Source: Escherichia phage HMD-P3
DNA length: 64,000 bases
Strand: one strand, 5' to 3'
Sequence record: PQ462667.1
In this document: positions 10,964 through 15,050 of the stretch, piece after piece
Position numbering within the stretch: position 1 is the stretch's first letter
How the letters are laid out: each line of letters opens with the position of its first letter
Notes under the pieces: model-generated
Database searches by the model: none
The model's input: only the letters and a program-made list of their open reading frames with translations
Told to the model about the DNA's origin: nothing
Translations under genes and position numbers: made by a program

Positions 10964-11440
10964 TTACATCTCAGCCATTTCAGCTTCAGTAATAACTGTA
11001 TTACACAATGCATCTACAGCTTCATTACCACTAATACCAGAATGTCCTTTGACCTTAATAAAGGTAGGGTTAGTGTTATGAAAGTTGATATACTGCTGTG
11101 TTAATTTAAATGCTTCCTGCCAAAGTTCTAGATTAAGAGGAACTTCACCATCTGCTTTCTTCCATCCTTTCCTTTGCCAAGAAAACATCCAACTTTCCAT
11201 GCCATTTTTGCAATAAGCAGAGTCAGTATAGATAGCAATTGGTCTATTATCTTTTTTAACAGACCAACGTAGAGCTTCTACAATAGCTGTGAGTTCCATC
11301 TCATTATTTGTAGTTTTAGGATTATAACCAGATTTAGAACCTAAACGATCGTCGTTATCATCATAGACAATAAAACCCCAAGCACCTGGACCTGGATTAG
11401 ACTTACAAGCACCATCTGTGTAAATGTGGAAAACGCTCAC
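10964..11440 (-). CDS. rnhA: ribonuclease HI
   Basis: N-terminal IYTDGACKSNPGPGAWG and downstream TNNEMELTAI...IYTDSAY...GHSGISGNEAVDAL match the RNase H fold motifs. Confidence 0.85.
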   Translation of the reverse strand: MSVFHIYTDGACKSNPGPGAWGFIVYDDNDDRLGSKSGYNPKTTNNEMELTAIVEALRWSVKKDNRPIAIYTDSAYCKNGMESWMFSWQRKGWKKADGEVPLNLELWQEAFKLTQQYINFHNTNPTFIKVKGHSGISGNEAVDALCNTVITEAEMAEM

Positions 11441-11985
11441 TTATTAAGTTCCTCTACTGGTGGGTAATAGTTGGTATAGAAATCTTCTATAACTGCTTCG
11501 CTACCATGAAGTGTTTTTCTTAGTTCATTAGCCTTTATGACCGCACTTTCTAGATCTAAGTAGTCAAAAACACCCCCGTAAATATTTTTACCATTATTAT
11601 CAATTACCTGTACTTGCCATTTCTGTAGTTGTTTGTTCCAGTGTACACCTAGATATCCAGATTTACTCGATGCGGTACAATTTCTATTATTAGACTGGCT
11701 TGTAGCTTCTCTTAGATTTATCCACCTATTATCTGACCTAATTCTATTTTTGTGGTCTATTAAATCAGGTATTGATCCTGTCATGTATAGAAAGGCTAAC
11801 CTATGTGCTAAATAATCTATTTTATCTATCTTAATAGTTATATAGCCATCTTTTCTTAGGTATCCAGCGGGCGAACCTGCTTTTCCTCCCCTACCACGAC
11901 TCACCTTATTAGTAAATATACCAGTATCTGGATCATAGATTAGTATTTCTTTTAATCTTTCTTGGCTAGGTAGCTTTTTACTCAT
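11437..11985 (-). CDS. HNH homing endonuclease with AP2-type DNA-binding domain
   Basis: HNH motif DHKNRIRSDNRWINLREATSQSNNRN; C-terminal GYLGVHWNKQLQKWQVQV...GGVFDYLDLESAVIKANE resembles an AP2 domain; free-standing between rnhA and the next gene. Confidence 0.75.
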   Translation of the reverse strand: MSKKLPSQERLKEILIYDPDTGIFTNKVSRGRGGKAGSPAGYLRKDGYITIKIDKIDYLAHRLAFLYMTGSIPDLIDHKNRIRSDNRWINLREATSQSNNRNCTASSKSGYLGVHWNKQLQKWQVQVIDNNGKNIYGGVFDYLDLESAVIKANELRKTLHGSEAVIEDFYTNYYPPVEELNK

Positions 11986-12361
11986 CTAACCATCCTATGT
12001 CTATACTAAGTAGTGCTTTTATTCCTGTAATACCTGTACCATAAGTATTATATCGAATAGCACTTCTGCTCTTTACTTCAAGTATATTTTCATGCTCTGT
12101 ATTTTCTAGAATTTCTGTAGATATACCTAAATATCCTAATTGATCTTCCTCGTCCCAACCCATATCTTCTAGAAGATTTAGACGTAACTCTACCTTCTCA
12201 TCTCCATTTCCTACAGAGTAGTGGTCTTCTAAAGTCCTGAATTTAGAAGTGATAGAATCTAGTATTAATAATACCTGTTCCTTAGTAATAGTTTCTTTAT
12301 CACCCTGTAAGTAATTGGAGTAATTCAGAAGGGCTTGTTCTAATTCAATTTCTTTACTCAT
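11978..12361 (-). CDS. hypothetical acidic protein (127 aa)
   Basis: ORF overlapping the HNH gene start by 8 nt; promoter with a palindrome upstream. Confidence 0.5.
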   Translation of the reverse strand: MSKEIELEQALLNYSNYLQGDKETITKEQVLLILDSITSKFRTLEDHYSVGNGDEKVELRLNLLEDMGWDEEDQLGYLGISTEILENTEHENILEVKSRSAIRYNTYGTGITGIKALLSIDIGWLDE

Positions 12362-12387
12362 TTTATTATCCTTTTGTACTTATTGAG

Positions 12388-12440
12388 TATATTATATTTG
12401 AAATTGTACTCAATAAGCGAGTACAATTTCAAATATAATA
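12388..12440. promoter_or_regulatory. perfect 17-bp inverted repeat (7-bp spacer) overlapping a promoter
   Basis: tatttgaaattgtactc-aataagc-gagtacaatttcaaata; the right arm runs into a TATAAT element on the minus strand. Confidence 0.5.
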
Positions 12441-12460: not shown

Positions 12461-13300
12461 TTAAGAGGACATCTTAGCTTTAAGAGCTGGATGTGGATCA
12501 TATCCTTCCAGCTTGAAAGACCAGGCCGCAGTATTATTCTCTAATAAATCATAAAGATCTACAAATTCTGGCATTACTAGAGCTGGCAAAGGACGTGGTT
12601 TACGTTTCAATTGCTCCTCTACTTGCCCTATATGATCACTATAAATATGTGTATCTCCACCACTAAAGATGAGATAACGAGGTTTTAATCCAGTCAGTTT
12701 TGCTAGGATATGTGTTAGTAAAGCATAACTAGCAATATTGAAAGGTAGACCTAGAAAACAGTCTACAGAACGTTGTGTCCATTTAAGATCTAAGTATCCA
12801 TCATTACTTACGTAACATTGGAAACCATAGTGACACGGTGGTAATGCCATCTTATCCAGTTCAGCTACGTTCCATGCAGATACTAGGTGTCTACGACCAT
12901 GTGGATTATTCTTGAGACCCTCAATGAGTTCTAGGATCTGATCTCGTCCACCAAAGTTGCGCCATTGTTTACCATATACTGGCCCCAGATTACCTCTGTC
13001 ATAACCCATGCTTATGGCTTGGTCTTCATAATTTGGAGTCCAGATAGTCCACTGTCCTTCGTCACGCCCAAATGTGAATACTCGTAGATCATGGAGATTT
13101 GTAGATCCAGATAAAAACCATAGGAGTTCTCCAACTACCGATTTCCAAGCTAGACGTTTAGTGGTTACAGCTGGAAATCCTTCACGTAGATCGAACTTAG
13201 CATAGGAATCGAAAATCGAAACTGTGCCTGTCCCCGTACGATCGTTACGTGGTTCACCTAGTAAAATTACATCTGTTAGAATTTTTAAATATTGTTGCAT
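12461..13300 (-). CDS. thyA: thymidylate synthase
   Basis: Catalytic region ALPPCHYGFQCYV plus conserved TGTGT and WxxW motifs; 279 aa. Confidence 0.9.
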   Translation of the reverse strand: MQQYLKILTDVILLGEPRNDRTGTGTVSIFDSYAKFDLREGFPAVTTKRLAWKSVVGELLWFLSGSTNLHDLRVFTFGRDEGQWTIWTPNYEDQAISMGYDRGNLGPVYGKQWRNFGGRDQILELIEGLKNNPHGRRHLVSAWNVAELDKMALPPCHYGFQCYVSNDGYLDLKWTQRSVDCFLGLPFNIASYALLTHILAKLTGLKPRYLIFSGGDTHIYSDHIGQVEEQLKRKPRPLPALVMPEFVDLYDLLENNTAAWSFKLEGYDPHPALKAKMSS

Positions 13301-14989: not shown

Positions 14990-15050
14990 CTCACTATTTC
15001 AGGAATATTATAGCAAATCTGGTAGAGATTAGCAAGTAAAATTTCAAAGA
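14990..15050 (-). promoter_or_regulatory. T5-type early promoter for nrdB
   Basis: Reverse complement ...ttttacTTGCTAatctctaccagatttgcTATAATattcc (17-bp spacer). Confidence 0.55.

Follow-up and report, generated by a model that had tools for sequence, protein, structure and literature searches.

The unit that varies between the rnh and thyA genes of Escherichia phage HMD-P3 and its T5-like relatives consists of two genes, orf127 and an HNH gene, which together span about 950 bp between a palindromic promoter and the rnh start codon. The product of the HNH gene combines a nuclease core of the I-HmuI ('HNN') type with a C-terminal AP2 DNA-binding domain, and the gene is free-standing, as a separate open reading frame outside any intron or intein. 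It is probably a homing-type endonuclease gene, expressed early, whose product would nick or cut the cassette-less allele near the start of rnh, with the cassette then being copied in by repair. The analysis was based on a window of 64,000 nucleotides of the phage genome (PQ462667.1), in which the region includes the following features:

10964-11440, minus strand: rnh (RNase H; Pfam RNase_H, E=2.7e-32), the left border of the cassette
11435-12387: segment of 953 bp with orf127 and the HNH gene and no T5 counterpart, delimited by blastn breakpoints and junction sequences
11437-11985, minus strand: HNH gene, an open reading frame of 182 amino acids with an ATG start and a TGA stop
11503-11664, minus strand: AP2-type DNA-binding domain of the HNH protein (residues ~108-161), three strands and a long helix
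11683-11814, minus strand: HNH_3 (His-Me finger) catalytic core (residues 58-101; Pfam HNH_3), with conserved D77, H78, N86, N90, N99 and N102
11978-12361, minus strand: orf127, an open reading frame for an acidic helical protein (PHROG 26840, unknown function, E=6e-83)
12390-12440: perfect palindrome with 22-bp arms (12390-12411 and 12419-12440) and a 7-nt loop, the right border
12461-13300: thyA (thymidylate synthase)

The original prediction had described an HNH motif with a C-terminal AP2-type domain, and both parts of this description are upheld. The motif quoted there, DHKNRIRSDNRWINLREATSQSNNRN, corresponds to residues 77-102 of the HNH protein, which matches the full length (1-46) of the Pfam HNH_3 profile (PF13392) at residues 58-101 with 51.4 bits (E=8.4e-14), exceeding the curated cut-off of 24.8 bits, and also matches PHROG 99, 'HNH endonuclease', with E=3e-64. 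Across an alignment of 60 homologues, D77, H78, N86, N90, N99 and N102 are invariant. The nuclease domain lacks CxxC and has Asp-His followed by two Asn at the spacing of I-HmuI. A profile of the alignment retrieved I-HmuI (1u3e; E=7.5e-8), whose DH, N and N positions line up with those of the family, and the AlphaFold (AF2) model is confident across both domains (pLDDT 92). The predicted fold is of the beta-beta-alpha-metal type and resembles that of I-HmuI. Enzymes of this HNN type nick one DNA strand.

The AP2 domain is less conspicuous in the single sequence. The HNH protein on its own scores 15-17 bits against Pfam AP2, below the cut-off of 33.3, and both Pfam at a relaxed E-value and phmmer against PDB returned sub-threshold matches only; an NCBIfam search gave nothing useful for the HNH protein or orf127. 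We therefore used the homologue alignment, a profile search and structure instead. Pfam AP2 is detected at E<=1e-3 in 41 of the 60 homologues, and positions 100-169 of the same profile match the AP2 domains of WRI1 (E=3.9e-10) and TEM1 (E=5.6e-5). The AP2 signature and fold, a three-stranded sheet on a helix, are supported for the C-terminal domain, which in both respects matches plant and apicomplexan AP2/ERF domains (AtERF1, 1gcc; TEM1, 7et4; WRI1, 7wq5). The AP2/ERF proteins are transcription factors without a nuclease domain, so that the DNA-binding module alone is held in common.

The 2.5 kb around the HNH gene are 98.8% identical to Escherichia phage fp01 (Tequintavirus) and match 314 T5-like records. 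The window protein is 100% identical to QIE02336.1 of fp01, which carries the annotation 'HNH endonuclease motif containing protein', and public records of fp01, BF23, SSP1 and others already label the gene as an HNH (homing) endonuclease. Among T5 proteins, HegE or F-TflV (AAS77098.1, T5.051) has the same HNN-AP2 architecture and length class with 60% identity over the full length, yet hegE sits elsewhere in that genome, at 25.6 kb near the tRNA region and not between rnh and thy; HegH and HegF are 42% and 27% identical. The BF23 gene annotated as hegE (WLW40698.1) is 82% identical and occupies the same locus as the window gene, between a 127-aa ORF and rnh. The window gene is a close paralogue of T5 hegE/F-TflV. 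The window has no second HNH-family copy and no relatives of T5 hegF, hegH or the GIY-YIG gene. At the nrdB-nrdA junction (~15000-15005), where T5 has the HNH gene hegH (P-TflVIII, 525 bp), the window has nothing and so represents an empty allele for this second endonuclease. Searches of the literature returned no published activity of F-TflV and no papers naming F-TflV, F-TflVI or F-TflVIII.

Outside the T5-like phages, I-HmuI of the Bacillus phage SPO1 (~22% identity) is an intron-encoded HNH nicking endonuclease that lies inside a group I intron and carries C-terminal helical/HTH DNA-binding modules, whereas the window protein is free-standing and has an AP2 domain instead. A parallel in organization is seen in the Xanthomonas oryzae Xp10/OP1/Xop411 HNN-AP2 endonucleases, which have the same boxes HRLA, DH, DNR and NLRE followed by AP2, and no CX2C dyads. 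A protein of Xanthomonas phage L522, from another phage group, is ~46% identical over part of the window protein. Free-standing HNN-AP2 endonucleases are described as scattered and varying between related genomes, in accounts that give no biochemistry (PMC2248197, PMC2993671); a table of homing endonucleases in T4-related phages has an 'HNH-AP2' column (PMC2993671), and the classification of His-Me finger nucleases places the HNH_3/I-HmuI domains with AP2 modules in its group 2 (PMC5714182).

A comparison of the rnhA-thyA interval across T5-like genomes, which had been set beforehand as a test of the insertion, revealed the polymorphism. The T5 junction, within the thy-rnh stretch at 46.3-47.1 kb of AY543070, is empty, with 64 bp in place of the 953 bp in the window: homology between the two ends at 11434, two codons into rnh, and restarts at 12388. 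Phages of the slur09 type have 301 bp with an unrelated 93-aa ORF inside the same borders, an allele present in 115 records. The cassette of orf127 and the HNH gene is found in 36 of 446 rnh-bearing phage records (~8%) and in 6 of 27 T5-like loci from IMG/VR. Elsewhere the interval is filled by an 89-aa ORF, in some cases together with a proteasome-subunit-like ORF, by an ORF of 66-98 aa, or by a DUF3307 membrane protein, and the junction has at least six contents other than the cassette in all. One T5-like phage with a 117,842-bp genome has a 257-aa I-TevI-like GIY-YIG/NUMOD3 endonuclease directly after thy (L015:2353-3126), which means that the interval hosts two unrelated endonuclease families.

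Several of these alleles have features of their own. The proteasome-subunit-like gene of Epseptimavirus-type alleles (L034:2920-3498, L031:2650-3225) encodes a 192-aa protein of the proteasome subunit family (PF00227, E=1.2e-10), which is unusual for a phage early region. The 93-aa ORF was considered as a diverged orf127, a relationship that BLASTP does not support (E=7); the two have in common a C-terminal 'I-x-W', which resembles a constraint from the downstream ribosome-binding site. The 'empty' T5 junction ends in ...ATTAATTGGAGCAAATAATG (L008:884-947), whose last 13-20 nt are shared with the 3' end of the saus132-type 89-aa ORF, so that T5 seems to have undergone a deletion here and not to represent the pristine site.

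At the left border, the start of rnh separates carriers from non-carriers. It reads ATGTC(G/A)GTT at all 21 non-carrier loci and (G/A)TGAG(C/T) at all 14 carrier loci. In the window, GTG AGC replaces ATG TCG; the GTG start occurs in the allele group of the window, and ATG in its relatives. The second codon switches between the two serine codon families, from TCR to AGY, because the TGA stop of the HNH gene overlaps the rnh start. Over the first 21 nt of rnh, all carriers differ from all non-carriers at 4-10 positions. No other sequence is shared by all non-carriers while differing in every carrier, and we therefore propose the rnh start as the candidate target region, with a nick or cut predicted near ...TAATGTCGGTTTTCCACATTTACACAGATGG... 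in non-carrier alleles.

The palindrome at 12390-12440 forms the right border in every allele of the thy-rnh interval, and homology to all other alleles restarts there. The window has no second palindrome of this kind. Its RNA fold is much better than that of shuffled sequences (z=-9.1), both of its strands bear promoter-like hexamers in mirror image (TTGAAA-18-TACAAT), and it comes immediately after the GC-rich thy terminator hairpin. The element is kept in T5, slur09 and saus132, and the T5 annotation has a promoter at the homologous place. It is a probable early promoter for orf127, the HNH gene and rnh.

The HNH gene is set in the early nucleotide-metabolism block rnh-thy-frd-nrd. It overlaps both neighbours by a few nucleotides, as had been predicted: GTGA is common to its stop (TGA, 11437-11439) and the rnh start (GTG, 11438-11440), and its ATG lies inside the end of the upstream orf127, with an 8-nt overlap (11978-11985). 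Its placement between rnhA and the thyA block is correct on the rnh side and has to be revised on the other, where the upstream neighbour is orf127. Since orf127 always precedes it, the HNH gene does not abut thyA, which is separated from orf127 by the 51-bp palindrome/promoter region. Selfish nuclease genes among thy and nrd genes are also found in T4, with MobE at nrdB and I-TevI in td. MobE belongs to a different HNH group from the window protein (PMC5714182), and I-TevI is a GIY-YIG enzyme.

The pairing of the two cassette genes is strict. In all 36 phage records with orf127, and likewise in all 11 contigs assembled independently, orf127 is followed by an HNH_3 gene of 181-182 aa that overlaps it by the same 8 nt, giving 47 of 47 cases at the rnh-thy locus in which neither gene occurs without the other. 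Correspondingly, no pair of carrier and non-carrier differs by the HNH gene alone, and a one-gene insertion is never seen. The orf127 protein (127 aa, pI 4.4) has zero matches in Pfam and NCBIfam searches, and its AF2 model is predicted to be helical at low confidence (pLDDT 66), with no structural relatives in a Foldseek search against viral structures except its own orthologue. Among 5.8 billion proteins, its relatives make up only 35 protein clusters, all of them T5-like.

Recombination does occur between orf127 and the HNH gene. Relative to the window, BF23 has 97% amino acid identity in orf127 and 82% in HNH, NR01 has 97% and 60% (tblastn 59.8%), and DaisyDussoix has 75% and 81%. The pairing is the sole mildly unexpected point about the HNH gene. 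One possible reading is that the two form an obligate two-gene mobile module in which orf127 is a functional partner of the nuclease and not a hitch-hiker. It might, for instance, inhibit the nuclease or serve in self-protection, act as a subunit for specificity or loading, or be an anti-defence cargo that repays the upkeep of the element. Such a partnership would explain why the pairing at the locus is never broken despite recombination between both genes, but we regard it as a speculative and rather improbable extension.

All carriers have intact HNH alleles of 181-182 aa. Compared with close alleles they have a dN/dS of 0.03-0.09, a level equally low in rnh and frd, in a comparison that leaves out Bf23, H8 and DaisyDussoix, whose dS is saturated against the window, and NR01. 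These values show that the HNH gene evolves under purifying selection. The clade-A HNH alleles are at least 97.8% identical at the amino acid level, yet the thy genes beside them differ by a dS of up to 0.8 or are only 31% identical. The thyA gene at 12461-13300 itself falls into three T5-like allele classes (loci L009-L035) with ~97%, 54% and 30% amino acid identity to the window, and entire thy genes have been exchanged while the frd and rnh flanks stayed nearly identical.

NR01, for which the HNH comparison uses tblastn identity and a 50-nt identity map, is 94-100% identical to the window in the flanks, of which one reaches to the rnh stop and the other begins at the end of orf127. Between these points identity falls to 72-88% in rnh and 50-70% in the HNH gene, a patch that comprises exactly these two genes. 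In addition, a single HNH allele occurs with two different rnh haplotypes, the changeover lying ~30 nt inside rnh. The patch and the rnh crossovers would fit co-conversion around a homing endonuclease gene, although general recombination could give the same result: the whole region is a mosaic, so co-conversion-like patterns are not proof.

The polymorphism could also be explained by ordinary homologous recombination between the palindromic promoter and rnh, with the HNH gene as passive cargo or as a nuclease that serves some other end, for instance by interfering with co-infecting phages or damaging host DNA. All alleles swap between the same two borders, including those without a nuclease (orf93, orf89, the 66-98-aa ORFs, DUF3307 and the proteasome-like gene), and thy and frd next door are as mosaic as the cassette interval. 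The low dN/dS fits a gene that is useful to the phage, and a domesticated gene would also show strong purifying selection; a preprint on T5 describes nine HNH genes without an established role, together with damage to host DNA by hegG (10.64898/2026.04.02.716235). Against the homing reading also stand the constant company of orf127 and the lack of any simple one-gene insertion. However, the HNH family is a classical homing class (PMC5714182, PMC2248197), its absence from ~92% of relatives indicates that the gene is dispensable, and the NR01 patch and rnh crossovers beside it are what co-conversion would leave. We judge this alternative to be unlikely. A decaying or catalytically dead remnant, in which AP2 only binds DNA as a regulator or has no function, would agree with the weak Pfam AP2 score of the window protein and with the degenerating HNN-AP2 genes that are common in other phages (PMC2248197). 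This is very unlikely for a gene that keeps all invariant catalytic columns and its full length in every carrier, has a dN/dS of this order, and yields a model confident over both domains.

It had further been suggested that the HNH enzyme is a candidate nickase for the site-specific single-strand interruptions in virion DNA of T5-like phages, a suggestion that the comparison turns against. One-strand nicking by I-HmuI-type HNN enzymes would suit such a role. T5 and BF23 virion DNA both have site-specific nicks (PMC10644984), and BF23 carries an allele of the HNH gene. The published major-nick consensus, R/GCGCRGG (PMC3517423), occurs as RGCGCRGG four times in the window (4233, 21510, 42547 and 55134), all on the minus strand and none near the HNH gene; nick sites confined to one strand would be expected to lie in this way. 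Four matches are no more than chance, with 1.8 expected and at least four in 13 of 100 shuffles. T5 has nicks but an empty rnh-thy interval, its nearest paralogue being 60% identical and located elsewhere, and only 36 of 446 T5-like records have the HNH gene here. The genes responsible for T5 nicking, sciA and sciB, were mapped to the late region (PMC3517423), while the HNH gene lies among early genes; it is thus neither present in every nicked phage nor late in map position, as would be expected of the T5 virion nicking system (sciA/sciB). We consider a nickase role extremely improbable.

The preferred explanation remains that of a free-standing homing endonuclease. Here the HNN-AP2 class and the polymorphism agree with the original prediction, and the view of a one-gene unit beside thyA does not hold. 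The HNH gene is probably transcribed early, from the palindromic promoter upstream of orf127, and is translationally coupled to orf127 through the 8-nt overlap and to rnh through the GTGA overlap. The I-HmuI-like His-Me finger core (D77-H78...N90...N99) is the predicted catalytic part, and the C-terminal AP2 domain would supply sequence specificity. In a mixed infection with a cassette-less T5-like phage, the enzyme may nick or cut that genome close to where rnh begins; repair by recombination with the carrier genome would then copy orf127 and the HNH gene, often with part or all of rnh, into the recipient. Catalysis by the HNH protein, a nick versus a cut, the target site, and spread by homing over plain recombination are all points that we infer. 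Free-standing homing endonucleases of T4 spread with flanking markers during mixed infection. For SegB of T4, this has been reported specifically (PMC2330249).

Neither the HNH gene nor its family is new, and the part that such genes play in the mosaicism of T5-like phages is likewise known: F-Tfl homing endonucleases have been singled out as the chief source of the differences among T5-like genomes (PMC10644984). The gene therefore has little weight beyond annotation, as its class has been described and the role of homing in these differences recognised. Its dismissal as the long-sought T5 nickase keeps that search aimed at the late region. For cleavage assays, the analysis yields a defined empty allele (T5), a set of alternative alleles and a candidate target at the rnh start; its contribution to the understanding of T5-like phages is that the mobile unit at this locus consists of two genes.
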